DNA of 64,000 nt. Source: an uncultured delta proteobacterium (lineage in GTDB: Bacteria > Desulfobacterota > Binatia > DP-6). A program made the position numbers and the translations under genes. The stretch lies in assembly GCA_963746505.1 (NCBI GenBank), contig CAVVBN010000014.1, positions 72,823 to 136,822 of the forward strand, in the 5' to 3' direction. Within the stretch, counting starts at the first letter, position 1. Each line of letters starts with the position of its first letter. This document shows, one piece after another, positions 8,856 through 34,386 of the stretch. Below the pieces are notes generated by a model. That model worked only from the letters and a program-made list of their open reading frames with translations, had not been told where the DNA came from and did no database searches.

Positions 8856-8897
8856 GACCGTGTGTCATACGAATCGGGGGGGATGTCCAATCGGCGC

Positions 8898-9950
8898 TCA
8901 GTAGCGCGTGATCACCGTCACGCCGCTCGTACCGAACGAGCCCATCGACTCGACGACGCTCGTCACGTCCTCGAGCCCGACGGTGCGCGAGACGAGCTTG
9001 CCCGGATCCACCTTCTTCGCCTCCACCATCGCAAGCATCGGGGTGAAGTGGGGGGCCTGCATGCCGAGCGAGCCGATTATCTGCAGCTCCTTGAAGACGA
9101 TCACGTCGACCGGAAACGCCACCATGCCCTTCTCGGCCTGCGTCGTGAGGCCGATCTGCAGGTGACGCCCGCGCTTGCGCAGGCAGAGGATCGAGTTGAG
9201 ACACGTGGTGGCGATGCCGAGCGCGTCGACGGAGACGTGGGCGCCGCCGCCAGTGAGCGTGGCGATCGCGCCGACGGCGTCGTCCTTCGCGGCGTTCACG
9301 GTGTGCTCGGCGCCGATCTCCTTCGCGAACGCAAGCTTGTCGTCGGCGACGTCGACGGCGATGACGCGCGCGCCGAGCGCCGACGCGATCTGGACGGCCG
9401 AGAGCCCGATACCGCCACAGCCGTGTACGGCGACCCACTCGCCCGGTGCGACGCGTGCCTGATCCACGAGGCCGTGGAACGACGTCATGAAGCGGCAGCC
9501 CATGCTGGCGGCGTCGACGAACCCGACGGCGTCCGGCAGGCGGACGAGGTTCACGTCGGCGTAGGGGACCGAGGAGTAGCGGCCGTAGCCGCCGCCGAAC
9601 GCGAGGCCCGGCAGGACCGGCGTGTCGCACATGTTGTGGTGCCCGGTACGACACCACTCGCAGGTGCCCTCACCGCCGCTGAAGGGCACGATCACCCGGT
9701 CGCCCTTCTTCCACCGCGTCACCTCGGCGCCGACCTCTTCGATCACGCCGCAGAACTCGTGGCCGATGACCGCGGGAAACTGCGGCACGATGCCCACCCA
9801 GGACCAGTCGCCCTTCCAGATGTGCCAGTCGCTCCGGCAGATCCCGTTCGCCTCGACGCGAAGGATCACGCCGTTCGGCAGGAGCGATGGGGTGGGGACG
9901 TCGCGGACGACGAACGGTTGCTCGATGGCCTCGAGGACGGCTGCGCGCAT
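8898..9950 (-). CDS. Zn-dependent alcohol dehydrogenase (MDR family)
   Basis: GHEFCGVIEEVG zinc motif, the CEWCRTGHHNMC structural zinc cysteines and a GCGGIG Rossmann motif. Confidence 0.9.
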   Translation of the reverse strand: MRAAVLEAIEQPFVVRDVPTPSLLPNGVILRVEANGICRSDWHIWKGDWSWVGIVPQFPAVIGHEFCGVIEEVGAEVTRWKKGDRVIVPFSGGEGTCEWCRTGHHNMCDTPVLPGLAFGGGYGRYSSVPYADVNLVRLPDAVGFVDAASMGCRFMTSFHGLVDQARVAPGEWVAVHGCGGIGLSAVQIASALGARVIAVDVADDKLAFAKEIGAEHTVNAAKDDAVGAIATLTGGGAHVSVDALGIATTCLNSILCLRKRGRHLQIGLTTQAEKGMVAFPVDVIVFKELQIIGSLGMQAPHFTPMLAMVEAKKVDPGKLVSRTVGLEDVTSVVESMGSFGTSGVTVITRY

Positions 9951-10030
9951 GGTCCGCCCTTACACCCGGTCGCCCGCGCGCAGCAATCCCCGGAGACATC
10001 CGCCCCGCCGAGCCCCAAGCCTCGGCGGCG

Positions 10031-11167
10031 TCAGAGGAGACACGCTACCGCGGCAGCGGCACCGAGCCCCATCGCGCCCCCGACGTAGAACACCATCGCC
10101 GCGCCCACGTGATCCCAGAGCTGTCCGGCGACGAGCGACGCCACGAAGAGACCGACGCCGACGAGTGTCCCATGCAGCCCGAGCGCTGTCGCACGGACGT
10201 CCGCCGGGGCGAGGTCCGCGATCAGTGCCTTCTCCATCCCATCGGTGAGCCCGCTGTAGGCTCCGTAGAGGACGAACAGCGGCCAGAGCAGCCACGCCTG
10301 CGCACCACCGACGGTGGCGAAGCCGAGGTAGACGAGACCGTAGAACGCGTATCCCGCAACCAGCATATGCTTGCGTCCGATGCGATCCGACAGCCTGCCG
10401 GCTGGATAGGACACGGCCGCGTAGACGACGTTGTACGCGAGATAGAGCAGGACCGTCCCGGCGCCGGACATCCCGAGGTTCCCGGCCCGCAGCAGGAGGA
10501 ACGCGTTCGACGAGTTTCCGAGGGCGAAGGCGAGCGCGAGCAGCAGAAAGCGGCGGAGCCGCAGAGGGAGCGTGCGCCAGTCGAACGACAAGGCCGATCC
10601 GGCCGGCCCCGCCCCCGGTGTCTCGCGGACGAGGAAGAGGAACCCAATGCCGATCGCCGCCGGAATGAGGGACCAACGAAAGACGGTGACGTAGTCACTG
10701 CGGAGCTGAGCGAGGAAGGCGTAGGCGAGCAGCACCCCGATCACGGCGCCGGAGCTGTCGAGCGCCCGATGGAGACCGAAGGCTGCCCCGTGGCGTCCGT
10801 CGGCGACGCTGTCGGCGACCAGCGCGTCCCGCGGCGCGGTCCGTATGCCCTTTCCGAGGCGATCACCGACGCGACCGAGGAGCACGGTGCCCCAGCTGGT
10901 GGCCGCCGCGAGGAGCACCTTCCCCATCCCCGAGAGCGTGTAGCCGAGGATCGTGGGCCATTTCCGATTGCCGACGCGGTCCGACAGATAGCCGGAGAAC
11001 ACCTTCAGCAGGCTCGCCGTGCTCTCCGCCAGCCCCTCGACGAGGCCGAGTACGGCCGGGCTTGCGCCGAGCGACGCGGTCAGGAAGAGCGGGACGAGCG
11101 GGTAGACCATCTCGCTCGCCACGTCGGTGAAGAACGATGCGAGGCCGAGGACAATGATGTTTCTCAT
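10031..11167 (-). CDS. MFS transporter
   Basis: 12 predicted TM helices and the MFS signature GxLSDRxGxRK (GYLSDRVGNRK). ATG at 11167. Confidence 0.85.
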   Translation of the reverse strand: MRNIIVLGLASFFTDVASEMVYPLVPLFLTASLGASPAVLGLVEGLAESTASLLKVFSGYLSDRVGNRKWPTILGYTLSGMGKVLLAAATSWGTVLLGRVGDRLGKGIRTAPRDALVADSVADGRHGAAFGLHRALDSSGAVIGVLLAYAFLAQLRSDYVTVFRWSLIPAAIGIGFLFLVRETPGAGPAGSALSFDWRTLPLRLRRFLLLALAFALGNSSNAFLLLRAGNLGMSGAGTVLLYLAYNVVYAAVSYPAGRLSDRIGRKHMLVAGYAFYGLVYLGFATVGGAQAWLLWPLFVLYGAYSGLTDGMEKALIADLAPADVRATALGLHGTLVGVGLFVASLVAGQLWDHVGAAMVFYVGGAMGLGAAAAVACLL

Positions 11168-16484: not shown

Positions 16485-17277
16485 TCATCGCAGGGGACGC
16501 GGGAGCGCGCCGACGGCGGCGAGTATCTCGGTGGGAAGGGGGCGGACGCGGAAGTTGGAGGTGACGTGGGTCCAGCGGACGACGCCGTCGGCGTCGATCA
16601 GCACGGATGCCGAGAGCGCGATGTCCCGACCCTCATGTCCGCCCGTGTGCCTCAGGCCGTAGGCATCGATCGTGCCGAGGTCGGGATCGGAGAGGATCGG
16701 GAACTCGAGCCCGGCGTCGCGCGACAGCTCGGCGTTGGTCTCGACCGGATCGACAACCATCCCGACGACGCGACATCTCAGGCGTCGGAATTCGCTCATG
16801 CTCAGCTGCAGACCCTGCAGCTCCGACACGCAGAAGGGTCACCAGTGGCCACGGTAGAAGACCAGCAGGACGGGTGCGCCGCGCAGGTCGGCAAGCCGCA
16901 CGGCCCTGCCCTTCTGGTCGAGCAGCGCGAAGTCGGGCGCCAGTGCTCCGATCGCCGGGCCGGAGGCGCGCGGGACGACGGGAACGACGTAGAGCATCGT
17001 GGCGAACAAGACGGCGAGCGCGACGTCAGCACCCAGCAGCACCTTCGCCGTCCGACCACCCGGCTCCCGGCGGACCGCGACGATCGCCAGTGCTACCCCG
17101 GCGGCGACGAGGATCCAGTTCGGCACCGCGTCGTTGCGCACCCATGGCAGCCACGACGCCAGGCGGAAGACGACGACGAAGTAGCCGACGATGCCGGCGA
17201 GAACCAGCAACAGGCCGGTGAACGCGAGGCCGCGTCCCCCGCGCGGATGGCTCACGGCGGCGGCCTCGGTCGACATG
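16485..17277 (-). CDS. Membrane-anchored TlpA/peroxiredoxin-like thiol-disulfide oxidoreductase, selenoprotein candidate (Sec encoded by TGA at 16841-16839)
   Basis: Two same-frame ORFs (17378-16839 and 16829-16485) are separated only by TGA. Read through, they give ...LLVFYRGHW-U-PFCVSELQ..., a thioredoxin-fold W-C-x-x-C motif with the first Cys replaced by UGA. Two N-terminal TM helices and a redoxin fold follow (FPILSDPDLGTIDAYGL). Confidence 0.7.
16804..16822 (-). promoter_or_regulatory. Bacterial SECIS-like hairpin downstream of the UGA
   Basis: mRNA AGCUGCAG-GGU-CUGCAGCU gives a perfect 8-bp stem with a GGU apical loop. The stem starts 18 nt 3' of the UGA, with the loop at about +25, inside the bSECIS distance window. 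Confidence 0.55.
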
Positions 17278-17564
17278 CCGCGCACCCTACTGCCGAGCGC
17301 TGCGGCGGACAAACGCCAGCAGCCTGATCGCTGCCGGCGTAGGCTCTGCGAAACGGCCGCGACACGCATCGCCGACACGGTTGTTGCGGCCGCACAGTTC
17401 GAATACGAGAGGCTGCAGGTCGTTTTGCCAACGCGAGACCCGAAGGCCGACCGCGGTCACCTCTCGATCTCTCGTGCAGCATCTTCCACCGGATCGCTGG
17501 CGAGACGCAGGGACCGGTCAGCTGTCCCGACTGGACCGGAGCTTTGGCCACCAAACGAACCGAA

Positions 17565-21618: not shown

Positions 21619-22098
21619 ATGCAGGCGCTTCCATTGGTCTTCGTTGCGATGGGCGACGACCTTCCCCGGCATCTCGTCGCGGCCGGCCTCACCCGCGACG
21701 GTTACGACGTGACGCCGGTCGCGACCATGGCCGGCCTCCTCGAACGGATGACCTTCGAGCTGTCCCTGGCGCGTCGCTGCGGAAGAGACTTCGTGGTGCT
21801 CGCCGACGCGCGGTTCCCGTCGTTCTCGGCGGTGGACCTGCTGGAGCTGCTCCGCAATGCCGGCCAGCGCGCTCCGGTGATTCTGGTCGGCGACCTGCGC
21901 GAGGAAGACACCTCGCGTGCCCTCGATGCGATCCTGTTGCCCGGCCGCATCAATGTGGCCGACGTGCGGACGGCCGTCGAGCATGCGGTGGCGACGGCGC
22001 GGCCCCCCGACGACCGCGATCGGCTACCGCCTCGGCCGGCGCCACGCGGCGATGTGCCGCTGCTTCCACTGCCCGTGGCGCGAACGGTTCGCGGCTGA
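21619..22098 (+). CDS. Receiver-like (pseudo-receiver) domain protein
   Basis: CheY-like layout (LVFVAMGDDL, VVLADARFP, VILVGDL) but no conserved Lys. It sits immediately upstream of the cytochrome gene. Confidence 0.45.
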   Translation: MQALPLVFVAMGDDLPRHLVAAGLTRDGYDVTPVATMAGLLERMTFELSLARRCGRDFVVLADARFPSFSAVDLLELLRNAGQRAPVILVGDLREEDTSRALDAILLPGRINVADVRTAVEHAVATARPPDDRDRLPPRPAPRGDVPLLPLPVARTVRG

Positions 22099-22133
22099 GC
22101 GGCCCCGTCCGGCTGTTCGCGCGGCGCCCCGCG

Positions 22134-24038
22134 ATGCGTGACCCGCAACGGCGGTGCCGTGGACGGGGAGTCGTCCTCGGGCTGCTCCTGCTCGCCTCGA
22201 CGCCGGCCCGAGGCGCGGAAGAACTCGGCAACGACGTCTGCCTCGCCTGCCACGATGCAGACGACCTGACCGGCACGGCGGCGCACCGGATCGCTCGAGT
22301 GCGGGGCGACGCCTACGGCAAGGCGGCTCACGGGGCGCTGCCGTGCGCGGCGTGCCACGCCGACGTCGCCGTGGTCCCGCACGAAACACCACCGGCAACG
22401 GTCGGCACGGCGCCCTGTGCGACCTGTCACGAGGACGCGGTCACGGCCTACCAGCGAAGCGTCCATGGCGGAGCCAATGGCCGCGGCGGGACGGGGACGG
22501 CGACATGCGCCGACTGTCACGGCGACGTGCACGCGATCGTGCCGGAGCGCGAGCCGACGTCGCCCGTCCACTGGTCGCGGCTGGCCGACACGTGCGCCCA
22601 TTGCCATGGCGACGTCAGCGCCGCTGATGGGCGGCGGGTTCCGGTCGTGCGGCCGGTCGAGGCATATCTGCAGAGCGCGCACGCGCGCGCCGTCCACGAG
22701 GGGCGGCGGGGGGCGGTGTGCTCCGACTGCCACGGCTCGCATGGCATCTTCCGTGGCAGCGACCCGCAGTCGACCATCTGGCGGGCCAACGTCCCGGGAA
22801 CCTGCGGCACATGCCACGCCCAGATTCTGGCCGCGTACGAGGCCAGCGTGCATGGCGAGGCATTGGCGCACGGGCTGCGCGACGCGCCGGTGTGCACCGA
22901 CTGTCACGGTGAGCACCGCATCCTCAGCGCGAGCGAGCCCGCGTCGCCGGTGTTCGCGGCCAACATCCCCGGGGAGACGTGCGGCCGCTGTCACGCGAAC
23001 GAACGCCTGAGCGCGAAGTACGGCCTGTCGTTCGGCAAGGTCTCCGCGTTCCAGGACAGCTATCACGGCCTCGCGCTACGGGCCGGGCAGCTGACGGTGG
23101 CGAACTGCTCGAGCTGCCACGGCGTGCACGACATCCGTCCCTCGAGCGATCCGCGCTCGCACGTCCATCCCGCGAACCTCGGCCAGACCTGTGGCAAATG
23201 CCATCCCGGGGCCGGCTCGCAGTTCCAGCTCGGCTTGGTGCACGGCGGGCCCGCGTCCACGGGTGCGGTGGCAACCTGGTGGATCCGGGGCGTCTATCTC
23301 TGGCTGATCGGCCTCGTGATCGGTGGGATGACCGCCCACAACCTCCTCGACCTCGCACGCAAGGCCCGGTCCCCCGTTCCCGCGCCGCCGGGGGTCCCCG
23401 GGAATCAGCCGGAGCGCATGACGCGCGCGCTGCGCTGGCAGCACGGTCTGGTGATGCTGACGTTCCCGGTGCTCGTCTACACCGGCTTCGCGCTCACGTA
23501 CCCGGAGAGCTGGTGGGCGGCGCCCTTCCTGCGGTGGGAGGCCGCGTGGGGGCTTCGCGGGCGACTTCATCGGATCGCGGCGGTCGTCATGATGGTACGC
23601 GCTCGCGTGGCATCTCGTCCACCTTGCGATCAGCCGCCCCTTGCGGAGCTGCATGCGCGCCGTGCTGCCCTCGATGCACGACGTTCGGGCGCTGCTCGGC
23701 ACGCTGGCATATCACCTCGGGCGGCGCACCGGTCCACCGCACTCCGGCACGTTCAACTACGCCGAGAAGGCGGAGTACTGGGCCTTCCTCTGGGGTACGG
23801 TGCTGATGGCCGGGACGGGGCTTCTCCTCTGGTTCGAGAACGCGACGCTCCGGTGGCTGCCCGGCTGGGTCCCGGAGGTCGCCACCGCCATCCACTTCTG
23901 GGAGGCCGTGCTCGCCACCCTCGCGATCGTGGTGTGGCACCTCTACTGGGTGATCTTCGACCCGGTCGTCTATCCGATGGACTGGACATGGTGGACCGGG
24001 CGCCCACCGGCTGCGCGCGTCCACGAGCGTCTGGCTGA
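22134..24038 (+). CDS. Multihaem cytochrome c (11 CXXCH) fused to a cytochrome b-type 5-TM domain; frame broken near 23590
   Basis: 11 CXXCH motifs between 22240 and 23210. TM1-TM2 of a b-type domain (His in TAHNLLD and WQHGLVM) lie in frame 1. The continuation (WYALAWHLVHLAISRP...AIHFWEAVLATLAIVVWHLYWVIFDP) runs in the +1 frame from about 23593 (ORF 23641-24075). Confidence 0.75.
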   Translation: MRDPQRRCRGRGVVLGLLLLASTPARGAEELGNDVCLACHDADDLTGTAAHRIARVRGDAYGKAAHGALPCAACHADVAVVPHETPPATVGTAPCATCHEDAVTAYQRSVHGGANGRGGTGTATCADCHGDVHAIVPEREPTSPVHWSRLADTCAHCHGDVSAADGRRVPVVRPVEAYLQSAHARAVHEGRRGAVCSDCHGSHGIFRGSDPQSTIWRANVPGTCGTCHAQILAAYEASVHGEALAHGLRDAPVCTDCHGEHRILSASEPASPVFAANIPGETCGRCHANERLSAKYGLSFGKVSAFQDSYHGLALRAGQLTVANCSSCHGVHDIRPSSDPRSHVHPANLGQTCGKCHPGAGSQFQLGLVHGGPASTGAVATWWIRGVYLWLIGLVIGGMTAHNLLDLARKARSPVPAPPGVPGNQPERMTRALRWQHGLVMLTFPVLVYTGFALTYPESWWAAPFLRWEAAWGLRGRLHRIAAVVMMVRARVASRPPCDQPPLAELHARRAALDARRSGAARHAGISPRAAHRSTALRHVQLRREGGVLGLPLGYGADGRDGASPLVRERDAPVAARLGPGGRHRHPLLGGRARHPRDRGVAPLLGDLRPGRLSDGLDMVDRAPTGCARPRASG

Positions 24039-24071
24039 GGACGCGCCGCTCTCGCCGGACGACGTCGAGGG

Positions 24072-24840
24072 CTAGGGGCCCGGCCGATGCTCCATGATGC
24101 CCGCCTCCTCGTCGAGGGCCTTGGCGAGCTTGATCAGGTCGTGGCTCTGCTGCAGAACCCGGTCCATCGCGAAGGTGTGCCATTTGAGCTGGATGTCGCG
24201 ATAGTCACGCTCGAGAGCCTCGAGACGCGGACGCGCCTCCTTGCGCCAGGACGCCTCGCTCCGCGCCGAAGCGTCCAGGGTATGGCGCGTCCGCCAGAGC
24301 TGCATCTTCGCGGTCGAGAGAACCGCGAGCGCCGCCTGCGCCTTCATCGGCTTCTGGTGACAGACGGCACAGCGTGCGGCGAGCTCCGTAGGTGAGGGAT
24401 AGCTGATCGCCATCGCGCCGTGGCACGTGAGGCAGGTGGCGCCCTTGCCATGGGCGGCGAGCTCACGCGCGTGGACGGTTTGCGCGTAGGCCGCGAGCTC
24501 GTTCGGGTGACACGCGCCGCAGGTGGCCGGGAGCCGGGTCGCGTGGATGAGGCTCGCGGGATCACTGGCTAGCAGGACGCTGCGGTGGGCGACCTCGGCG
24601 GTGGCGGCGTGCGGATCACCCCCATGGCACTTCTCGCAGCCCACGCCCGCCTTCCCGTGGGCGGATCCCTGCCACTCCTGGAAGCTGTGGCCGAGCGCGA
24701 TCGGCAGCACGTCCCCCTGGTGGCAGGCGACGCACTGGTTCGTCGACGGCTCCTCCGCTGCCCCCACCCCACCCGCGAGCGCGAGCACGAGCGCCAGCAA
24801 TAGCGCCTCGGAACGAACGGAGATGTGGAGGCACGTCATC
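24072..24840 (-). CDS. Pentahaem c-type cytochrome (secreted)
   Basis: Signal peptide plus five CXXCH motifs (CVACH, CEKCH, CGACH, CLTCH, CAVCH). ATG at 24840. Confidence 0.8.
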
Positions 24841-25241
24841 GGATACCCTCGGCTCGCCTGCCGCTCAGCGCACGTCGCGGATGCCTCCGCAGCTATGCCG
24901 CGAACCCGGGCGCTGTCAACGCGCCGGCGGCCGCCAGGGCCAAGCGTCCCCCCCCCGGGGCGCAAGGGACGGCGGACGGGCCTCCTCGCCCCTCTGGCCC
25001 CTCGCCAACGGGCGTGGACCCGTCCGACCTTCGCAACACGCCAGCGGTGATCTTCGCATCCACGTTCCCAGCACCGAGATGCCCTCCCCATCCCGTCCTC
25101 GCCGCTGCGAAGTCTCCGCGGGGATATGGACGAGCGTCGGTCGGCGTGAGATGGTTCGTCTATTGCATCCTGGACATGGCCACACGCCCGCGGCCGAACA
25201 CCTGGAACACTGACCGACTCATGACGGAGGGGGACTAGTCG

Positions 25242-26498
25242 ATGTCGATATCCCGTCTGGTATTTTCCATGGCCGCGGGGCTCGGGCTCTTCGCTGCGGT
25301 CGCAGGCGCACAGGTGTCGCCCGGGGATAAGATCACCGACGCGAATGCGGACAAGGTGAAGAACCTGGTCTCGCCCGGCGTCGACTGGTGCGTCCGGCGC
25401 GGGCAGCCGATCACGATCGGGGAGACCAAGAGGATCGAGTGGCCGAAGGCGTACAAGGAGGCGACGGAGAAGTACGGCGGGCAGGTGAAGCTCTCGGCCG
25501 ACGGGTTGCAGGTCCAGCACTACGTAGCCGGTCAGCCCTTCCCCACCCTCGATCCGAAGGATCCGCAGTTCGCGCTGAAGCTCATGTGGAACTTCGACTT
25601 CGGCTGGGTGAAGGGAACCGACGACAGCGACCTGCGGAACTTCGACGCCGACACGGGCACGGTTCCCGCCAAGGGTCCGATGTCGGTCGAGCGCCACTTC
25701 CTGCTCGACCACCTGCGCCGCTTGTACTGGACCGGGCGACTGTACGTCGACCCGAAACCCGACAAGCCGAATCCGAACGGCTATCGCGCTCAGCAGGGAC
25801 TCTACCCGATCCTCGAGCCATTCGACCTGAAGGGCGTCGGCGCGCTCGGCAACCGTTACGTGGACTCGGGGAAGTCGGACGACTCGTGGCTGTATCTCCC
25901 GTCGCTCCGTCGCGTGCGCCGGCTCTCGACCGCGCAGCGGTCCGACGCCCTCTTCGGCCAGGACACCGATGTCGACAGCTATGACGGCTATGCCGGGCAG
26001 ATCAGCTGGATGGACTGGAAGTTCCTCGGGGAGAAGGAGATGATCGGCGTGATGCACGCGCAGAACTTCCCCGTGAAGTGGGCCACCCCGGCCGATTGGG
26101 CCTTCGACGAGATCTGGGAGAAGCGCAATGTCTGGGTCGTGGAGGGCGTCTCGAAGCTTCCCCAGTACGCCTACTCGAAGCGCGTGCTCTTCATCGACAA
26201 GGAGACGCTCGGCGTTCTCTACTCGGACATCTACGACCGTTCGGGCGAGCTCTGGAAGGTCTGGATCAACGACTACAGCTTCCGCAAGAGCGTACCGGGC
26301 GGCATTGTGTATGACGACGAGATGCCGTTCCTGCCGTCGATCATGATGGTCGACATGCAGCTCGAGCATGCGACCAAGGCGTCGCTGCCGAGTCCCCGTT
26401 TCGCGGGCGAGCAGGGATGGTACTTCCACCAGGGAGAGAAGGTCGGCATCACCGACGACTGGTTCACGGTCGCCGCGCTCGTCGCCGCGGGACATTGA
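25242..26498 (+). CDS. DUF1329-family secreted protein
   Basis: Signal peptide, about 418 aa, with a motif pattern (MWNFDFGW, WLYLPSLRRVRRLS) matching DUF1329 LolA-like outer-membrane associated proteins. ATG at 25242 has a GGAGGGGG RBS. Confidence 0.65.
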   Translation: MSISRLVFSMAAGLGLFAAVAGAQVSPGDKITDANADKVKNLVSPGVDWCVRRGQPITIGETKRIEWPKAYKEATEKYGGQVKLSADGLQVQHYVAGQPFPTLDPKDPQFALKLMWNFDFGWVKGTDDSDLRNFDADTGTVPAKGPMSVERHFLLDHLRRLYWTGRLYVDPKPDKPNPNGYRAQQGLYPILEPFDLKGVGALGNRYVDSGKSDDSWLYLPSLRRVRRLSTAQRSDALFGQDTDVDSYDGYAGQISWMDWKFLGEKEMIGVMHAQNFPVKWATPADWAFDEIWEKRNVWVVEGVSKLPQYAYSKRVLFIDKETLGVLYSDIYDRSGELWKVWINDYSFRKSVPGGIVYDDEMPFLPSIMMVDMQLEHATKASLPSPRFAGEQGWYFHQGEKVGITDDWFTVAALVAAGH

Positions 26499-26782
26499 TC
26501 CACACGTCGCGGGACAGCCGGAGCGGCGGCATACCAGGCAAGGAAAACGACCGCCGCGCCGAGTGCCGGCAGCAGAAGCGCGGCACGAAGCAGGACGTCC
26601 GTAAGGCGCACGACGTAAAACGGGGCGACTGAAACATGCGCGCGGAGGCCTGCGCACGGTCACCGCGCTCGCGATCCCTTTACTCGTGCTTGCGACGAGC
26701 GGTGAGGCACAACCGACGCCTCAGGTGACTTCGTTGCTGGGCATGCTGCCGATTCACTCGAGACGGCCAGAAGCCAGCAGCG

Positions 26783-27987
26783 TCAACGGGCGCTACATGC
26801 GAGAGTGCGCTGCAGCGTCTTGGCGTCCGTACGGATCGCGTCTCCGCCGAGCGCGAGCGGCTCGCGAGCGTCTTCCGGAATCTTCTTGCGGGTCGAATTC
26901 GAGCGCAGCCGATGCGAGAACTGCGCGAGCTTCTTGCCCGTCTGTCGGAGGCGCTTGCGCGCGCGCTTGGTGTTGCCGCTGGTACACTCGGTCTCGGCGG
27001 TCTGGCGGCGGGCGTTGGCCACCTGCAGCGCGTTGACCAGCTTCGCCTGAATGCTCCCGAGCTGGCCCTCCCCCTCGACGGCGACGACGAGCGTCGCGAT
27101 CCGGCAGGCGAGCGATGCGAAGGTCGGGCCGTCGGGGACACCGTCGCAGCTGCCGGCGGGGAGCGTGGTCGACGTGGTACCGATCGTCGGCACGGTCGTG
27201 GTGGTGGTAACCAACGGGTTCTGGCTGCAGCTGTCCGGAATGAAATCCCCGTCGCTGTCCGTAGGATTTGCGCCGCAGAGACTCGGCGATGTGGCGCCGC
27301 CGAACCCGACGCCGAGCGTGCCGGTGCGGGCGAGGCTGCTCGAGTCAGCGACCGTCGTGCTGCCCGGGGGGTCGTCGAAGGTGTAGAGGAGGACCGTGTT
27401 CTGGTCGGCCGTCAGGTTGGGCGACGGCGGTGTGAACGACGCGCCGGTATAGCGCGCTACGTTGCTCAGACGAAGCACGTCAATGAGCCCGATGAAGCCG
27501 TCTCGCGCGGCCCCATCGCGGAAGATCGCGCCGACGTGGCTCGCGCTGCCGTCGCTGTCGTTCACGTCGCCGCTGGCAGCCTGGGACTGAACCAGGGTCC
27601 CGTCGAGGTACAGGCGCTCCTCGCTGCCGTCGTAGACATAGGCGACGTGGTGCCACTGGTCGAGCGAGACGGCCACCGAGGCGGAGACGATTCCACTCGA
27701 CACGCCATAGTTGAACCCCTGGAGTCCTCCCGACGCGCCCGGGATGACGGCGAGGTACTTGTCCTCTTGGAAGTCCTGCCACTCGTTGAATATCCGCGAA
27801 CCACCGTTGTGCGCGCTCGGGTAGAGGACGATGGCTTCGTAGGTGGCCGCCGTTTCAAATACGGTCTCCCCACTGACCTGGATCGTATCCCGCAAGCCGT
27901 TGAAGAGGGCGACCCCGGCCTCCGCGAACGAGGCGATCGCGAAGAGCGCCGCAACCGTGACGAGCAAGAATGTTCCGTGCTTGCTCA
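26783..27987 (-). CDS. Secreted LamG (concanavalin A-like lectin) domain protein
   Basis: Signal peptide. LamG-like core (LDQWHHVAYVYDGSEERLYLDGTLV) followed by a Thr-rich linker and a Cys-containing tail. ATG at 27987 has a GGAGGGG RBS. Confidence 0.65.
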
Positions 27988-28280
27988 TGCGAATCCCCTC
28001 CAGCAGCCCCGCCAGCACCGCAGTTGGCCGACATTCCCAGATGGCTGCTAGCTTCGAATGAAGCCGCCGGCCACCAGGCTCCCTCAAAGTGTAACGCGAG
28101 CTGGACTAGAACTGCAACCGATTTCGAGCCCGCCGTCACCCTCGGTTCGGGGTCGGTGCACGGTGTCGCGACGGGGCACAGTCCCGGCGCGGGCGATGAG
28201 TTCCCGAGGGTTCGCAGTTTTGGTGGCAGTTCGGGAGTGCAGCGCAGGGCATCTAGGCGCACGCAAAGCGCGCAGGTCCT

Positions 28281-31200
28281 TCACGGAATGACGACGGCCT
28301 GCAGCGTGATCGGACTGTGCACGGTGTAGTCGAGCTCGCTCGACTGCAGGACTCCACCAGGCGTCAACACATCGAGGACCTTCGGCACGGTGGTCGGGCC
28401 GACGGTGCAGTGCGGATCGGCGCTCGCGGCCGCGCAGACACCGAAGCTGAACTGACCGGGGGTCGCGGTGAAGGCGCGCGCCAGGTCGGGCGCGAAGCCG
28501 TCCTCGCCGGTGAGTGTGACCGTGAAGCCCCATCCCGAGCCAGCCTGCCCGCCGAGGGAGGAGGCCGGGACGCTGAACGTGATGAACCGGGAGATCGTGT
28601 TCGCGCTGATCGAGATGGTTCCGACGGTGCCTCCGTTGGCGTCGATGTAGCGCTGGCCGAAGCCCTGCACCTCGAGGAGCCGGCTCCACGCTGCCGACGG
28701 GGCGATGACGTAGTTGCGCTGCGAGAACGCGGCTGCGGTCGAGGTGGTGCCCGCGCTCGGATCGTGCACGTAGACGTCCACGAGTTGCGCCCCGAGCGGG
28801 CTCCCGAACGTCGGGGTCAAGTCCCGGACCCGCAGCTTGAACGTGACCGTGGACCCGTTTGGCGAGACGATGACCCGGAAGGCCTGGATGTCGAACGCCC
28901 CGGCATGGAAGTCCGAAAACGTCGGATAGGCGTAGTTTCCCGGGCCATTGTCATCGTTGCTGGGATCGGTGGCGTCCAGGACGACGGTGCCGGCAGTGAT
29001 ATCGACGAGGATCGAACGCTTGTCGTGGGCCGTGTCCCCGTTCGGGCTCACGGCCACGGTGTTGAGAACGGTCGTCCCCGCGCTGGCGGGAACCGCGACG
29101 GTGAAGCTGCCGTCCGGAGCGGCCGTCGTCGCGCCGCTCGTGGTGTCGAAGGTGTCGGTGTTCGTCGCTACCACATACACGCTGTTCCCGGCCGCGGTCA
29201 CGCCGGTGACGGCGAGGGGCGAGCTCTCCACGGGGCTCCCGTCCGCCGGGCTCGTGACCGTGAGGCTCGTCTCGCCCTGCACTCGCGCGACGTAGCGCGA
29301 CGAGGTCGTCGCTGGCAGCTCCAGGAGCTGCCCAGCGCCGAGATCGCCGAGCATCCGGACGAAGGCAGCCGCGGACCAGGTCAGCGGTGAGGCAGAGCCG
29401 GCAGGTTGATCGCTCGTGAAGCCAATCGAGGCCACCGTAGGATCCGTCCCGAACGGCGACGGAGCGAGGTCGGGAAGCTCCCAATCCTGTTCCGGGATCA
29501 GTCCGACACCGCCACCGAAGCTGGCCATTCCATCCACCAGGGTGGCCGCCGTGGTCGCGTCACCGCTCTGCAGGGCGTACGCCGCCCGTTCGGCAGCCAA
29601 GACGGGCCACAGATGGCCGGTGCCCCTACCGCTGGGCGCCCACGGCGCGCCGGTGGTTGCCGCGTCGCCGTACCCGTCCCCGTTGTAGCGGTGCCAGCCC
29701 GGCCCGTTCGGGGTGATGGTCTCCAGCGTCGCATCGACGACGGGCAGGGAACCGCTGATCGCGTCGTCCGTGGCGGCCAGATCGCCGAGCCGCGAGAGCT
29801 CGAGGAAACCCGCGTCGATGACCGCACGCTGGTCGAGCGTGGGACCGCCGTTGCCGACGTTGTACGAGATGGCCGCGTTGGGGTCGCCGGTCTTCGAGAG
29901 GCGGATGAAATACGGGGGCGCGGACAGCGGCCCGTTCGTCGTCACGGTCCAGCTCTTGACCGAGCGCTGGAAATCGTCGGCGACGCCCAGAAAGACCCGG
30001 GCCGACGGCACGTCGCCGTTAGCCTGGGCGAGGTGGGCAGCCGCGACCAGACCCGCGATCTCGGCGGCGATCGTCGAAGGCGAGTAGCCGGACTGCTCCT
30101 CCCAACGCTCGGGGCCGAACGCGGGGCCATGGGCGATCAGGAAATCGGCGGCGCGCCTGACGTGATCCTGGTACAGGGCGGCGTCGGTCATCCCGAGCTG
30201 ATCCGCCATCATGATCGCGTAGGCAGTCTCGTCGAGTTGCGTGCCGAATGAATCGGGCGCGGGCATGCCGTTGACGAGGCTGTTCCGCGGCATCGAACCG
30301 TCCGCCTGTTGCTGGCGACCGAAGAGGAAGTCGACCGTGTCGCGTGCCGTGTCGAGGTCCCCTGCCACGAGGAGCGCCGTCCAGGCCTGGTAGAGATCAC
30401 GGGCGAAAACTTCCCGGTAGGACCCGAAGAAGGTGCTGCCCGGATCTCCCGCCGAGATCGCCTGGCCCCAGGGCGCGGCGAGGCTGGCGACGATCGCGCC
30501 CGGGAAGGTCTTGTCCTCGGCAGCCTTCACGAGGTTGGCGCTCAGGTAGTAGACGTCGCGGAGCGCGCGGACACGCTTTCTCTTGATGCCGGGAAGCGAC
30601 GTCGGCGGGCGAACCAGCGAGTCGTCGTACGCCTTCCACCCCTGCCGGTAGGCCCTCCGCGCTGCCGGGAAGCCCGCGGCGATGGAGTCGTGCGCCGCGG
30701 AGACGGCCTCTGCCTGCGTCGCGCCGAAGCCGAGCGCGAGCGTGACGGCCCCGCGCTCGTGCCGCAGATTGACCGGCGCCGTCACGACGACGTTACCAAG
30801 AAGCGCGTCGGTGAACGGGTTGAACAGGAAGCCCGCGAAGTCGAGCTGGGCAAGCCCGTCGCTCCCCGCATTGGCGAAACCCACGGTGGCGTCGTTGAGC
30901 GGCCTCGATGCGTCCAGCGCCAGGAACACCGGCTGCGCGTAGTCGCGGTGGGCGGCGTTCGTCGCCGTCACCGTGTCGAACGCCACGGGAACCGAATGGC
31001 CAGTGGACGTGTCAATGGTGAACGAGTCGGCGCCGCCGTTCGCCACCTCCCCACCGCCGTTGCCGTTCACGGAGGGATCGAGACGGACGTAGAGCCGAAG
31101 GTTCGGGACGTGCGGCTTGAAACGTACGGCCATGAGCAGCGTGTTCGCACTCGGGTCGGTCACGTAGTCGGTCACGATCTGGTACGCGCCTCCCCTCCCC

Positions 31201-31562
31201 GTCGTCGTCACGCGACACAGCATCCCGCCTGCATCCAGCGCCCGCGCGCTGTACGTCATGTCGCGCGCCTGCAGGTCCGTGAAGGTCGCGCCGTCTGAGA
31301 CGATGTACTGCAGGGTCTCGACGTTGGTGTTGTCCACGGTCGGGTAGTAGACGTCACTCAGCAGGCCATTCGCGATCGTGTACCAGACCTTCGACGTCGT
31401 ATTGCGGGCCGTGCCGAGACAGTCCTTCCGGGCGAGCCCGAAGTGCGAGGGCGATCCGGGGCCGTCGGGGGCGGCGCCTTGAGCGCTGGCATCTAGCCCA
31501 GCCGCGCCCGCGACCACCACGAACGTCGCCGCCATCGCCAGTCCCCGGATCCATCGACGCAT
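28281..31562 (-). CDS. Secreted glycoside hydrolase family 15 (glucoamylase/glucodextranase-like) multi-domain protein
   Basis: Glucodextranase-type N domain, GH15 (alpha/alpha)6 catalytic region (GSMPRNSLVNG, WEEQSGYSPST, LWPVLAAERA) and C-terminal beta-sandwich domains. Signal peptide. Confidence 0.85.
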   Translation of the reverse strand: MRRWIRGLAMAATFVVVAGAAGLDASAQGAAPDGPGSPSHFGLARKDCLGTARNTTSKVWYTIANGLLSDVYYPTVDNTNVETLQYIVSDGATFTDLQARDMTYSARALDAGGMLCRVTTTGRGGAYQIVTDYVTDPSANTLLMAVRFKPHVPNLRLYVRLDPSVNGNGGGEVANGGADSFTIDTSTGHSVPVAFDTVTATNAAHRDYAQPVFLALDASRPLNDATVGFANAGSDGLAQLDFAGFLFNPFTDALLGNVVVTAPVNLRHERGAVTLALGFGATQAEAVSAAHDSIAAGFPAARRAYRQGWKAYDDSLVRPPTSLPGIKRKRVRALRDVYYLSANLVKAAEDKTFPGAIVASLAAPWGQAISAGDPGSTFFGSYREVFARDLYQAWTALLVAGDLDTARDTVDFLFGRQQQADGSMPRNSLVNGMPAPDSFGTQLDETAYAIMMADQLGMTDAALYQDHVRRAADFLIAHGPAFGPERWEEQSGYSPSTIAAEIAGLVAAAHLAQANGDVPSARVFLGVADDFQRSVKSWTVTTNGPLSAPPYFIRLSKTGDPNAAISYNVGNGGPTLDQRAVIDAGFLELSRLGDLAATDDAISGSLPVVDATLETITPNGPGWHRYNGDGYGDAATTGAPWAPSGRGTGHLWPVLAAERAAYALQSGDATTAATLVDGMASFGGGVGLIPEQDWELPDLAPSPFGTDPTVASIGFTSDQPAGSASPLTWSAAAFVRMLGDLGAGQLLELPATTSSRYVARVQGETSLTVTSPADGSPVESSPLAVTGVTAAGNSVYVVATNTDTFDTTSGATTAAPDGSFTVAVPASAGTTVLNTVAVSPNGDTAHDKRSILVDITAGTVVLDATDPSNDDNGPGNYAYPTFSDFHAGAFDIQAFRVIVSPNGSTVTFKLRVRDLTPTFGSPLGAQLVDVYVHDPSAGTTSTAAAFSQRNYVIAPSAAWSRLLEVQGFGQRYIDANGGTVGTISISANTISRFITFSVPASSLGGQAGSGWGFTVTLTGEDGFAPDLARAFTATPGQFSFGVCAAASADPHCTVGPTTVPKVLDVLTPGGVLQSSELDYTVHSPITLQAVVIP

Positions 31563-31789
31563 GCGAGACGCGGATGACCTCGTATCGGCAACTACGTGTT
31601 CCATCGGCTCGAGTCCTTCTCGGTGGCGAGCAGCCGCATCTGGGGGCTGCCCGGTGGATCATTCCGGCGAAAGTTGACGTAGACTCGCTGCTTGTCGGCG
31701 AGGGAAGGCGCTGCCGCCCAGCATGCCAGGACGAGGTCATTAGCGTGCTGCTCCTCCATGGCGAGGATGCCGAAGACCCGGCGCGGCAC

Positions 31790-32673
31790 CTACGGGTGCA
31801 CAAACGTCGTGATGACCCGCCGGAACCTCGGCGAGTGCTGCTGCGGGACGATCGGTTGATCGTGGCAGTTCTTGTAGTACCCCTTCACGACGAACCTCTC
31901 GCATGCCGGCGGCGGGGCGAAGTCGCCACAGTCGCCGGCCCAGCCGAAGCCACATTGCGTGTGCGTCGCGTCGTTCGGGTCGGGCTCGGTGCAGACGCGC
32001 TGAGCGGCTTCTGCGCTCGCCGCGTCCTGGCCGCGGCAGGCAACCACCTCCCCGGCTGCTGCGAAGAGGTTGCCGTAGAACGCGCCTTCCTCGCTCGTCC
32101 AATTCGCCGCTTCCTGCGGATCGACGGCGAGCGCCTTGTTTGGTCCGCGCAGTGACACCGCAACCGCGACGGAGTGGTCGTTGGTTCGCGCGAGCAGACA
32201 GGCGGTGATCCATCCCTGGCCCGCAACATTCAGTGGACGATGGAGCCATGACTTGCCGAGCCCGAGCTCACCGTTGAACTGGTAGACAGTCCCATCGTGC
32301 GTCGTCCCGGTGAGCGTGACGCCCTCGGGCAGCGCGCAGCCGACGATGTAGGTGAGCACCTCGCGGCCGTCGGCCGTCGCCAGCAGACCCGCACCGCCCT
32401 GGGTGTTCAACGCGCAGTTGCCTCGGCGAGCTTGCTCTCGGCAAGCGCCGTCGCGGCGAGTGTGTCGGCGGCCAGCTTGTTCCCGGAGAGTCTGTTGCCG
32501 GACAGCCTGTTCCCGGCGAGCCTCGCATGCCCCGCAGTCGCGCCGAGGAGCAGCGCGGCAACGGTGAGCAGCCCGACGGTCACGGCAGGCGCGCGGAACG
32601 CCGGCGACAGGGCGAGGTTCCTCCTGGGTTGCCGGCCAGTCGCGGTGGAGCGAACGGGAACTCGGTGCATCAT
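31790..32673 (-). CDS. Secreted Cys-rich hypothetical protein with GNRLS-type tandem repeats; frame broken near 32408
   Basis: The signal peptide and GNRLSGNRLSGNKLA repeats (ORF 32760-32407; ATG at 32673 with GAGGAGG RBS) are followed, in another frame, by a 200-aa Cys-rich domain (ORF 32410-31790) that lacks its own signal peptide. Confidence 0.45.
32476..32520 (-). repeat. Three imperfect 15-bp tandem repeats encoding G-N-R/K-L-S/A pentapeptides
   Basis: The units cttgttcccggagag / tctgttgccggacag / cctgttcccggcgag are visible in sequence. Confidence 0.7.
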
Positions 32674-32976
32674 GGTCGGTTCCTCCTCGCAGACGCGGAC
32701 CGGAGGATGGATGCTCCTCCTGTGGCTACTCGCATAAGCCAACGCGGGGATGCAGGACAAGTCCTCTGTTCAGAGGAATTGTCCCCGATTCCCGCCCCCA
32801 TATCAGACCCTGGCCCGGCCCCCTTCCCACCGTTCGCCGGCTTGCGCGGGCAGAAGCCTCGCCCCTTGCAGCTGAACGGGACGCGCCGCTCGACGGCGTA
32901 GTCGCTGCAGTGTACGCCGCCCAAGAGCAGGCATCCGTCCCTACGGCCATGTGGCCATCACCGGTCCCCTAAAGCG

Positions 32977-33077: not shown

Positions 33078-34386
33078 TCATGCCGCCGCGTCCTCGCGTG
33101 CGAACCAGACCGTCGAGACCGTCGCGAGCGCCGAGACGACGAACAGGAGCCCGAGCATGTTCTGCCAGCCGCCCGGTCGATCCACGATCGCGCCCCCGCC
33201 GAACTGGTAGAGCATGGCCGCGGCGTAACCCGCCGCATCGATGAGCCCGATCAGGACGCCGCAGTGCGGGCCGCCGAACTCGATGGAGAACACGCTCATC
33301 GGCAGATAGTAGGATGGGGCCACGCTCAGCCCGTACAGGAACAGCACGACGGCCGTCAGCGGCGAACGCCGTCTCCGGGGCGAGCGAGGCGCGCCCCATC
33401 GCGAACAAGGCCCCGAGGCACAGCGCGGCGAAGACGAGCATCCCGCCGAGCAGGAGCGGTCGTCCCCTGCGCGGAACGCGGTCGTAGACCCAGCCGCCGG
33501 CGAGCAGGGCCACCAGACAGCCGGCCGGGAACACCGAGGATGCGGTCGCGGCCTGCGCGGGGGAGATGTGAAGGGTCTCCTTCAGATAGAGGGGGAGGAA
33601 GCCGATCACCTCCATGAGTACGGTCGTGCACATGAGGCTCACGCACATCAGCCACACGCGACCACTGCGCGCGAAGTGGAGCAGGGCCTCGCGGAGGCCC
33701 GTGCCGTCGAGCGGGTGCGACTTCGCCTCGCCGCCCGCGCCGGCGCTCGGCGGGGGCAGGCCGGCGTCGGCAGGGCCGGCCTTGAGGAAGAGGAATATCG
33801 CGGCGATGACGGCCGCCGCCAGCGCTGCCGCGGCGACGAAGACCTTCGGCCAGCTCGTCAGCAGGAGCAGGCGCCCAAGCACGAGGGTCGACAGCACCGA
33901 GCTCAGGCGCGAGCTCGTGGAGATCACGCCCCACACCTTCGCGTAGCGGTCGGGTTCGTACCAGGCCGCGATCAGCTTCGACATGGCCGGCCAGCCAGCG
34001 GCGGCCGACAGCAGCATGGCGAAGTTCAGGAGGCAGAACAGCACGAATCCGCCGGCGACCGCGAAACCCGCGGCCGCGGCCGTGGTGACCGAGAGCGCCA
34101 GCAGGAACACCGTGCGCCCGCCGAAGCGATCGGCGACCGCACCGCCGAGCAGCTTGCCCGTCACCATGCCGGCCGTCCCCCAGCCGAGGATCGCGCCGAA
34201 CATCGTCTTCGTGAGGCCGAGCGCGGGGTCCTCGACCATGGCCGGGCTCGCGACGTAGATCGCGGTGCGGCACAGGATGAAGCCCATGTACCCGACGTAC
34301 ATGCAGCCGAGGATGATCAGCTCCCAGCGCAGGCGCCTGCGACCCTGTCCGCCATCAGGGCCACCATTGACGTATGGCATGGTCAT
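33078..34386 (-). CDS. MFS transporter (organophosphate:Pi antiporter GlpT/UhpC-like), frame broken near 33355
   Basis: The first 340 aa carry MFS motifs (GKLLGGAVADRFGGR). The last about 90 aa (TM11-12; LFLYGLSVAPSYYLPMSVFSIEFGGP) are in a different frame (ORF 33347-33078). Confidence 0.7.

Follow-up and report, generated by a model that had tools for sequence, protein, structure and literature searches.

CbcL-type fusion proteins are one of the few known bacterial links between the quinone pool and periplasmic or extracellular electron carriers. They belong to the CbcL/MtoC/MtrH family, whose members carry 3 to 23 CX2CH motifs and are spread over 15 phyla (PMC6295460, Zhong & Shi 2018). In CbcL of Geobacter sulfurreducens (GSU0274; Zacharoff et al.), a single polypeptide starts with a multihaem c domain in the periplasm, all of whose haems are bis-His, and ends with a dihaem cytochrome b of the HydC/FdnI type; the family has no FeS, flavin or molybdopterin subunit, and its genes often adjoin other c-type cytochrome genes. 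The window, that is, the whole stretch of 64,000 nucleotides that was analysed, carries at 22134-24075 of the forward strand a gene of the same design. It encodes a signal peptide and a periplasmic domain with 11 CXXCH motifs and, once a one-base break at 23597 is repaired, a HydC/FdnI-type cytochrome b within a 5-helix membrane domain of the same polypeptide, likewise without FeS, flavin or molybdopterin subunit and likewise beside another c-type cytochrome gene. As deposited, the record holds no uninterrupted reading frame for this protein, because of an extra A at 23597.

The predicted protein is assigned to the CbcL/MtoC/MtrH type by its Pfam match, its FdnI-like haem ligands, its modelled fold and its motif spacing; the Cbc-type multihaem c plus b fusion proposed in the earlier note agrees with the first three of these. 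On these features it is an ordinary member of a widespread and already described family, and its 11-haem version is already catalogued: Table S2 of PMC6295460 includes proteins of 650-706 aa that have 11 haems and space their motifs almost identically, among them PAW67162.1, which matches in both motif and TM spacing. The CbcL loop seems to resemble the motif P..D....G...L.....P.F....EK..YW..WG, as far as that loop can be read from the fragmentary OCR text of a damaged supplement (PMC9129911). More than 6,870 homologues were found, the best of them intact proteins of 620-660 aa, and at least 584 genome loci carry a relative. The nearest homologues come mainly from metagenome-assembled genomes of Binatia and Acidobacteriota, and not from Anaeromyxobacter or Geobacter, where the earlier note had pointed. 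The protein differs from CbcL in its 11 haems (9 in CbcL), in a c domain of about 345 aa (250 in CbcL), in a model with 5 TM helices where 6 are usually predicted for the CbcL/MtoC/MtrH family, and in its origin, a high-GC uncultured group nearest Binatia as opposed to the Desulfuromonadales. Furthermore, it has a dedicated pentahaem partner of 255 aa in place of the PpcA-type trihaems of CbcL, and its copy in the window is frameshifted.

The deposited frame-0 open reading frame, 22134..24038 (+), contains exactly the 11 CXXCH motifs that had been announced, with their first Cys at residues 36, 71, 95, 125, 154, 196, 224, 254, 283, 325 and 353; the end of the gene has to be moved to 24075. In an alignment of 25 homologues, all 11 haem motifs and about 150 further columns are invariant, so that a chance origin of the motifs is of no concern, and 11 invariant or near-invariant distal His accompany them. 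The first part of the gene, in frame 0 (22134..23596, +), was delimited by the motif count, the alignments, the alignment with FdnI and the AlphaFold helices. Its product begins with the signal peptide and the 11-haem c domain of the periplasm (residues 29-375, about 22218-23258), continues through the linker helix TM0 (23259-23369) and TM1 (23424-23498) to the start of TM2, and carries the predicted b-haem ligands H437 and H479. The second part, in frame +1 (23598..24075, +), where GC3 reaches 0.91, encodes the rest of TM2 with H493, a cytoplasmic loop with FNYAEK, TM3 (23758-23832), TM4 with the ligands H587 and H602 (23866-23958), and a C-terminal tail.

The membrane part is, on profile, ligand alignment and fold match, a predicted dihaem cytochrome b of the FdnI/HyaC type. 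The HMM search that had been suggested for a di-haem b domain gives, on the repaired protein, a match to Pfam Ni_hydr_CYTB (PF01292) over residues 428-612, spanning the break, at 32.8 bits where 30.1 is the gathering score; this match is reached only when the A at 23597 is removed. The FdnI family profile TIGR01583 matches at 5e-10. The AlphaFold model has five TM helices (376-412, 431-455, 474-499, 542-566 and 578-608), in keeping with the 5-TM domain with membrane His ligands first described for it, and among solved structures its fold comes closest to FdnI (E 3.9e-4, TM-score 0.68 on target), with HyaC next. In the family profile alignment with FdnI (PDB 1KQF chain C), H437, H479, H587 and H602 fall on H18, H57, H155 and H169, i.e. 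on all four haem ligands, and these four residues are invariant across 164 loci. The four-helix bundle thus has the 1+1+2 His pattern on TM1, TM2 and TM4 known from FdnI/HyaC. The conserved N-x-x-E/Q-K loop that precedes TM3 in FdnI and HyaC is also present, as N-x-x-E-K. It aligns with segment N110-K114 of FdnI, which we take to line the quinone site of that protein. FdnI and HyaC exist as subunits of their own, docked on FeS subunits, whereas here the bundle is joined covalently to the 11-haem domain through an extra TM helix. Two more membrane His, invariant in the whole 11-haem subfamily, lack an FdnI counterpart: H402 belongs to the linker helix, and H493 sits in TM2, 14 residues below H479. 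They could ligate a third b-type haem or contribute to the quinone site.

The adjoining gene, at 24072..24839 on the reverse strand, encodes a periplasmic pentahaem cytochrome c of 255 aa. The protein has a signal peptide, its 5 CXXCH motifs are accompanied by 5 invariant distal His, and three long helices form a C-terminal bundle. As had been noticed, it converges on the fusion gene: the alignment sequence and the ORF ends place the overlapping stops of the two genes in a CTAG palindrome at 24072-24075. In relatives, the homologues of the two genes adjoin at 13-24 nt on the same strand, in either order, and in one locus (L004) the pair is divergent. This adjacency in many relatives marks the pentahaem cytochrome as a genuine conserved partner of the fusion gene; the co-directional pairs are two-gene operons, whereas in the window the genes converge. 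Since each of the five CXXCH motifs has its invariant distal His, the protein would have no catalytic haem. We also considered its identification as a small NrfA or NrfB, which is not supported: HMM matches to these proteins are sub-threshold only, the best Foldseek match is NrfA with a non-significant E of 0.35, and a catalytic CXXCK is absent from the five motifs. A few homologues have precomputed PF02335 matches.

What, then, is the nature of the break? The earlier note had seen a 1-nt frame change near 23590. The break is indeed in the record, and the three-way nucleotide alignment places it at 23597..23597 (+), as a single extra A, a +1 shift private to this record and outside any homopolymer. 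Frame 0 is sensible only up to ..LHRIAAVVMM; beyond that the protein is read in frame +1, which takes over at 23593/23598 and reaches its stop at 24073-24075. The lesion consists of ATGATGGT, the additional A and CGCGCTCGCG; where the window reads ATGATGGTACGCG, the two close relatives read ATGATGGT-CGCG (L085, 96% nucleotide identity) and ATGATGCT-CGCA (L084, 94%), both without the extra A and both read through. After its removal the protein has 646 aa and reads ..AAVVMMVALAWHLVHL.. across the site. We consider it probable that the A is an error of the assembly consensus, in which case the organism makes the intact 646-aa protein. Between 23218 and 24075 the codon changes private to the window are four synonymous and none non-synonymous, two of them 3' of the break, which argues for error over decay, since selection on the window lineage shows no relaxation. 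The 3.3 kb of coding DNA shared with the relatives contain no other indel private to the window, and the family-invariant residues are all intact on both sides of the break. Ten kb away, near 33372, a second private +1 insertion, also at a non-homopolymer site, breaks an MFS gene that is intact in relatives at 89-94% identity. Homopolymers are the commonest site of indel errors, and the position of the extra A outside such a run speaks against the error reading. In favour of an error, the contig of L085, 96% identical to the window at the fusion locus, has an insertion-biased indel profile. A DNA pattern across the break had no match in metagenome contigs, and a protein-seeded scan of the same contigs returned only relatives at 62% identity or less.

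The same non-homopolymer site speaks for a real and very recent inactivation, with the CbcL-type gene being lost in this lineage, a reading that is credible but less likely than an error. The product would then have 634 aa, with 11 c haems, only TM0-TM2 and about 150 out-of-frame residues, frame 0 staying open for 440 nt beyond the break. As the break splits the four b-haem His two and two, the truncated product could bind no b haem and would thus have no connection to the quinone pool. Loss has parallels among the relatives: at 90% nucleotide identity, L081 keeps the pentahaem gene, but all that is left of its fusion gene is the last 28 codons, which adjoin glgP, and L085 retains the b domain only, the whole c domain being gone and the homology to the window ending at 23218. 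Judged by these sequences, this lineage can apparently do without the fusion gene, and the losses in L081 and L085 would agree with a real frameshift, although L085 is indel-rich and L081 a short metagenome contig, so that their rearrangements could be assembly artefacts. The MFS and fusion frameshifts both lie in a strain-variable stretch, where the decay of accessory genes could cluster; that two unrelated genes should carry the same private class of +1 insertion within 10 kb is, however, more simply explained by an error-prone consensus. The convergent arrangement makes co-transcription of the pair impossible here, unlike in the operons of relatives, and would also suit a gene on its way out. 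Against this, constraint shows no sign of relaxation, with invariant residues intact and a ratio of 4 synonymous to 0 non-synonymous changes, and a real frameshift would therefore have to be extremely young. Two separate readings seem to us somewhat unlikely: one, that the frameshift is real and the CbcL-type gene is being lost by three independent routes (frameshift in the window, 5' truncation in L085, near-complete deletion in L081); the other, that H402 and H493 serve a third b-type haem or the quinone site. Thus the choice between error and inactivation, which had been left undecided, now leans to error, not decisively.

That the break might be functional, through programmed +1 frameshifting at 23597 or a split into a c-haem/TM0-2 protein and a TM3-4 protein, is most improbable. 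Its sole support is a TTG at 23641 that could start a 144-aa product, and that product would be without the invariant H493. Between 23590 and 23600, ATGATGGTACGCG lacks both a slippery run and a conserved signal, frame 0 meets neither a rare codon nor a stop there and is open for hundreds of nucleotides beyond it, and the homologues that span the site, among the matches listed, and both close relatives are all uninterrupted. A programmed +1 ribosomal frameshift is nearly excluded, for want of a slippery or hungry-codon site in this interval and of interruption in homologues.

With the break taken as a consensus error and the receiver gene upstream of the fusion gene as a mere neighbour, we propose, as the likely joint reading of the locus, an inner-membrane quinol:cytochrome c oxidoreductase of the CbcL/MtoC/MtrH type, or one working in reverse, with a soluble pentahaem redox partner. 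The predicted polypeptide runs from a Sec signal peptide to 11 bis-His c haems that form a chain in the periplasm, a linker TM helix and a four-helix cytochrome b. By analogy with FdnI and the published work on CbcL, menaquinol would be oxidised, or quinone reduced, near the b haem of the cytoplasmic side; electrons would traverse the membrane via the two b haems and then the 11 c haems, and the 11-haem chain would exchange them with the 255-aa pentahaem cytochrome, which in turn would serve a periplasmic or extracellular acceptor or donor. It counts against this reading that the 64 kb contain neither an outer-membrane conduit nor a further cytochrome. The direction could be that of a CbcL-like quinol oxidase for extracellular transfer. 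The opposite assignment, which concerns the physiological role and not the nature of the frameshift, would make the fusion protein a quinone reductase with an external electron source, as in MtoC-like Fe(II) oxidation or uptake, or would have it feed a periplasmic reductase; we regard it as unlikely. The family is reported from Fe(III) reducers as well as Fe(II) oxidisers, and no sequence feature was found that separates the two directions (PMC6295460); moreover, an FdnI-type b domain conserves energy when it reduces quinone on the cytoplasmic side (bioRxiv 10.1101/2022.08.31.506072). The window, however, contains neither mtoAB/mtrAB nor nrfA, nor any other gene for a redox enzyme. A periplasmic reductase could be suggested by the weak, non-significant NrfA-like structural matches of the pentahaem partner and the few PF02335 matches of its homologues, but its five CXXCH motifs with their five distal His leave no catalytic haem for a reductase role. 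In many Acidobacteriota and Binatia loci, an ImcH-like gene (about 500 aa, 5-7 haems) lies directly beside the fusion gene, and in Acidobacteriota this quinol oxidase neighbour points to outward extracellular electron transfer. ImcH, the heptahaem inner-membrane quinol oxidase of Geobacter, has the same proposed physiological niche as the fusion protein and an unrelated fold, NapC/NirT-like and without b haems; no ImcH-like gene was found in the 64-kb window.

The upstream gene at 21619..22098 (+), which ends 35 nt before the fusion gene, encodes a protein of CheY-like fold with a degenerate active site. It aligns over its full length with single-domain receivers, with a Pfam Response_reg match far below the gathering score (E 0.076, 13.6 bits against 30.2) and an NCBIfam FixJ-type match at E 7.8e-4. 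Aligned with distant classical receivers, it keeps the phospho-acceptor Asp63 and one acidic residue, whereas the first residue of the acidic pocket is replaced by Gly, the Lys by Gly, and the Thr/Ser falls within a 3-residue deletion; of the two acidic residues, Asp, Thr/Ser and Lys of a catalytically competent CheY-like receiver, one acidic residue, the Thr/Ser and the Lys are thus missing. By this alignment it is a true pseudo-receiver. The lack of catalytic residues had been correctly seen; its placement in the respiratory module did not stand and was rejected on synteny, as no pseudo-receiver adjoins the fusion homologues in any of 80 related genome loci. One clear orthologue cluster only was found among 1.8 billion representatives, and the sole clear orthologue sits in a locus free of cytochromes. 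In the window no Rfam RNA family was detected. Several sites stood out when GC3 frame plots were screened for additional frameshifts; inspection traced most of them to adjacent genes or antisense signal. The sequence near 32428 is ambiguous: it may be a GGG to GG frameshift, or two genes may overlap there by stop and start in TTGA.

For annotation, the fusion gene is best treated as encoding a single protein of 646 aa, with a 1-nt error suspected; at least one other nearby gene shows a defect of this kind. Were the lesion real, it would be a record of this respiratory branch being lost within a population. The pentahaem gene, at a dN/dS of 0.32 between the window and L081 copies, is still under purifying selection, and if the fusion gene has indeed been lost by the three routes, its product would have a role independent of the fusion protein. 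Uncultured lineages of soil and sediment, namely the Binatia and Acidobacteriota, very commonly carry the 11-haem version with its dedicated pentahaem protein.

The gene that begins at 22134 on the forward strand opens with an ORF (22134-24038) containing exactly 11 CXXCH motifs (first Cys at residues 36 to 353), the frame-0 translation of which loses biological sense beyond ..LHRIAAVVMM. The reading resumes in frame +1, as ..ALAWHLVHLAISRP.. to ..SPDDVEG*, and ends at 24075; third-position GC in this frame is 0.91. Once one A at 23597 is removed, the 646-aa product matches the Pfam family Ni_hydr_CYTB (PF01292) over residues 428-612, spanning the break (32.8 bits; gathering score, 30.1), a profile check of the b domain proposed in the earlier note, and matches the FdnI model TIGR01583 at 5e-10. 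In the alignment of a profile built from 16 homologues with FdnI of E. coli (1KQF chain C), FdnI H18, H57, H155 and H169, which we take to be the axial haem ligands in the 1KQF structure, correspond to the invariant H437, H479, H587/588 and H602/603, and the conserved N-x-x-E-K motif of the homologues falls on N110-K114, the segment that presumably lines the quinone site in 1KQF. The AlphaFold model (mean pLDDT 75) displays five transmembrane helices, one linker helix plus four, and its closest solved fold is FdnI (E 3.9e-4, TM-score 0.68 on target), followed by HyaC. Motif count, profiles, ligand alignment and fold thus bear out the fusion of an 11-CXXCH c domain to a cytochrome b that had been read from the sequence.

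In the c domain, eleven non-motif histidines are invariant or nearly so throughout the family, as expected for 11 bis-His haems. The first five haem motifs of the family profile align with PDB 28pb chain A, a solved 278-aa 'Cytochrome c' (E 1.2e-12), far better than with every other solved multihaem protein; this chain is perhaps a CbcL-type periplasmic domain. Two further histidines, H402 (about 23337, in the linker helix TM0) and H493 (about 23611, in TM2, 14 residues after the ligand H479), are invariant in 163-164 of 164 related loci and, unlike the four haem ligands, have no counterpart in FdnI; they might be ligands of a third haem or residues lining the quinone site.

The fusion protein is a further member of a known and very widespread family. 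At E<=1e-10 the protein has more than 6,870 homologues, which their sources label 'cytochrome c3 family' or 'cytochrome b/b6 domain-containing'; the top ones share 56-69% identity, and nearly all of the best 120 of these are intact, with 620-660 aa. The nearest named relative is MFN8542778.1, from a Candidatus Binatia MAG (69% identity). A scan of species-representative genomes confirmed at least 584 fusion loci, the matches listed including Binatia, Holophagaceae/Geothrix, Thermoanaerobaculia, Terriglobia, Omnitrophota, Elusimicrobia and KSB1. Geobacter CbcL has the same architecture, with nine c haems, instead of the 11 found here, fused to a HydC/FdnI-type dihaem b domain (PMC9129911; bioRxiv 10.1101/2022.08.31.506072). 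The CbcL/MtoC/MtrH family of Zhong & Shi 2018 (PMC6295460) covers 15 phyla, 3-23 CX2CH and 416-1034 aa; its Table S2 already contains 11-haem members of 650-706 aa, and one of them, PAW67162.1, has almost the same spacing of motifs and transmembrane segments. It is this spacing match that would place our protein in the family at the sequence level, the comparison with GSU0274 being one of architecture. The Cbc-type assignment is supported, and the earlier note, whose observation is confirmed, was largely right in its interpretation.

The frame change in the b domain had been placed near 23590, and its cause, sequencing error or inactivation, left open. Three close relatives of the locus were reached via the cluster of the pentahaem protein. 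The JGI contig L084 (94% nucleotide identity to 23055-26503) is arranged as in the window, with DUF1329, the pentahaem gene and the convergent fusion gene, whose last 339 codons form one ORF; the ENA contig L085 is 96% identical to 23218-31623. Their three-way alignment with the window confirms the break and moves it to 23597, where the window alone reads ATGATGGT[A]CGCGCTC, against GGT-CGCG in L085 and GCT-CGCA in L084. Without the A, the translation becomes ..VVMMVALAWH.., with the four-residue spacing of all aligned homologues. The lesion divides the four b-haem ligands two and two, so that the product as written could bind neither b haem. A programmed or functional split would be a very improbable explanation, since there is no slippery site at the break and the homologues are all continuous.

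We consider an error in the deposited consensus the probable origin of the extra A. Between 23218 and 24075, the codon changes private to the window lineage are four synonymous, two of them downstream of the break in the repaired frame, and no non-synonymous, and all family-invariant residues are kept on either side. Furthermore, the MFS transporter gene (34761-33004, reverse strand) bears a second private +1 insertion (GCC[G]CTG context near 33372), where relatives of 89-94% identity read an uninterrupted ETAFA-LTAVV; the contig's own 574-aa product, P0250, has the same defect. Two unrelated genes with the same private class of lesion within 10 kb are expected of an insertion-prone consensus. 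This MFS gene encodes a sugar-phosphate permease whose transmembrane helices 11-12 resume in another frame (ORF 33078-33581). In the 3.3 kb common to the window, L084 and L085, the window has no other private indel; L085 has 28 such events of its own, of which three quarters are insertions.

A genuine and very recent inactivation is a serious alternative, to which we give a lower but appreciable probability. The private changes, the intact invariant residues and the second insertion speak against it, but neither insertion lies in a homopolymer, and the 26.5-40.8 kb stretch is also strain-variable. Moreover, in the third relative, L081 (90% nucleotide identity), the pentahaem gene is intact and the fusion gene is reduced to its final 28 codons, immediately behind glgP, and homology in L085 ends at 23218, leaving out the entire c domain; this lineage thus seems able to do without the fusion gene. 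Across relatives of 90-96% nucleotide identity the neighbourhood is mosaic: in L084, positions 26503 and about 40842 are linked by no more than about 1.4 kb, the 14 kb of the window being absent there, L085 diverges on either side of 23218-31623, and the pentahaem gene of L081 is flanked by SDR and glgP genes.

The convergent pentahaem cytochrome is equally verified: the gene at 24072-24839 on the reverse strand encodes 255 aa with a signal peptide and 5 CXXCH, and its stop codon overlaps that of the fusion gene in the palindrome CTAG (24072-24075). These two genes are the only ORFs with more than one CXXCH in the 64-kb window. Among contigs holding the protein's 408 homologues (E<=1e-5), several carry the pentahaem gene and a fusion homologue on one strand, separated by 13-24 nt, with the pentahaem gene first or, as in the Binatia genome with the top fusion match, second; in L004 the pair is divergent. 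With five invariant non-motif histidines, the protein has five bis-His haems and lacks a catalytic site. In the model (pLDDT 83), three long helices come after a haem-binding region; no solved structure is a significant match (top, NrfA chains, E 0.35). A dN/dS of 0.32 against the L081 copy indicates that the gene is kept even in the absence of the fusion gene.

The upstream receiver-like ORF (21619-22098, forward strand), ending 35 nt before the fusion gene, does lack key catalytic residues, as had been noticed, but is not a conserved part of the module: none of the 80 related genome loci contains it. In the alignment the phospho-acceptor Asp and one of the two acidic residues are intact, Gly replaces the second acidic residue and the Lys, and the Thr/Ser falls inside a 3-residue deletion. 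Full-sensitivity HMMER against 1.8 billion representatives gave one clear orthologue cluster (66% identity), which has the same changes and no cytochromes at its locus, and about 190 weak receiver-like matches. It is a real gene (GC3 0.83) and, as far as the evidence goes, a chance neighbour. A WS/DGAT acyltransferase gene follows both its orthologue in L086 (acyltransferase gene at 8493-9920) and the fusion-pentahaem pair of the Binatia genome L082 (acyltransferase gene at 8774-10198), and may be the trace of a shared ancestral neighbourhood.

Elsewhere in the window, an AhpC/TSA (peroxiredoxin-like) gene (16485-17456, reverse strand) has an in-frame TGA (16841-16839) at its redox motif, reading FYRGHW-TGA-PFC where WCPFC is expected, and suggests a selenocysteine (UxxC) peroxiredoxin more than a pseudogene. 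A GC-rich hairpin of 8 bp, capped by a GGU loop, begins 20 nt downstream of the TGA; its folding energy is no better than that of shuffled sequence, and Rfam gave no match. A gene for a secreted protein with pentapeptide-like repeats (LAGNR LSGNR LSGNK..; 31790-32769, reverse strand) ends at a TGA near 32428 and its coding signal goes on in another frame, either through a GGG to GG frameshift or as a second gene, coupled to the first through a TTGA stop/start overlap.

By analogy with FdnI and the published work on CbcL, quinol would be oxidised, or quinone reduced, close to the cytoplasmic-side b haem, and electrons would pass through the two b haems across the membrane to the 11 c haems and then to the pentahaem carrier. 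The family is found in Fe(III) reducers and Fe(II) oxidisers alike (PMC6295460), and outward flow through an FdnI-type domain conserves no energy (bioRxiv 10.1101/2022.08.31.506072). An ORF with at least three haems lies within 2.5 kb of the fusion gene in 51 of 80 loci. In distant loci, mostly of Acidobacteriota, this adjoining cytochrome is usually not the pentahaem protein but one of about 500 aa with 5-7 haems and a NapC/NirT-like segment, features that make it ImcH-like. Such a gene directly adjoins the 11-haem fusion gene in many genomes of Acidobacteriota and Binatia (L001, L024, L047, L054, L060, L063, L076 and others), so that the two inner-membrane proteins proposed as quinol oxidases for extracellular electron transfer are encoded side by side there.
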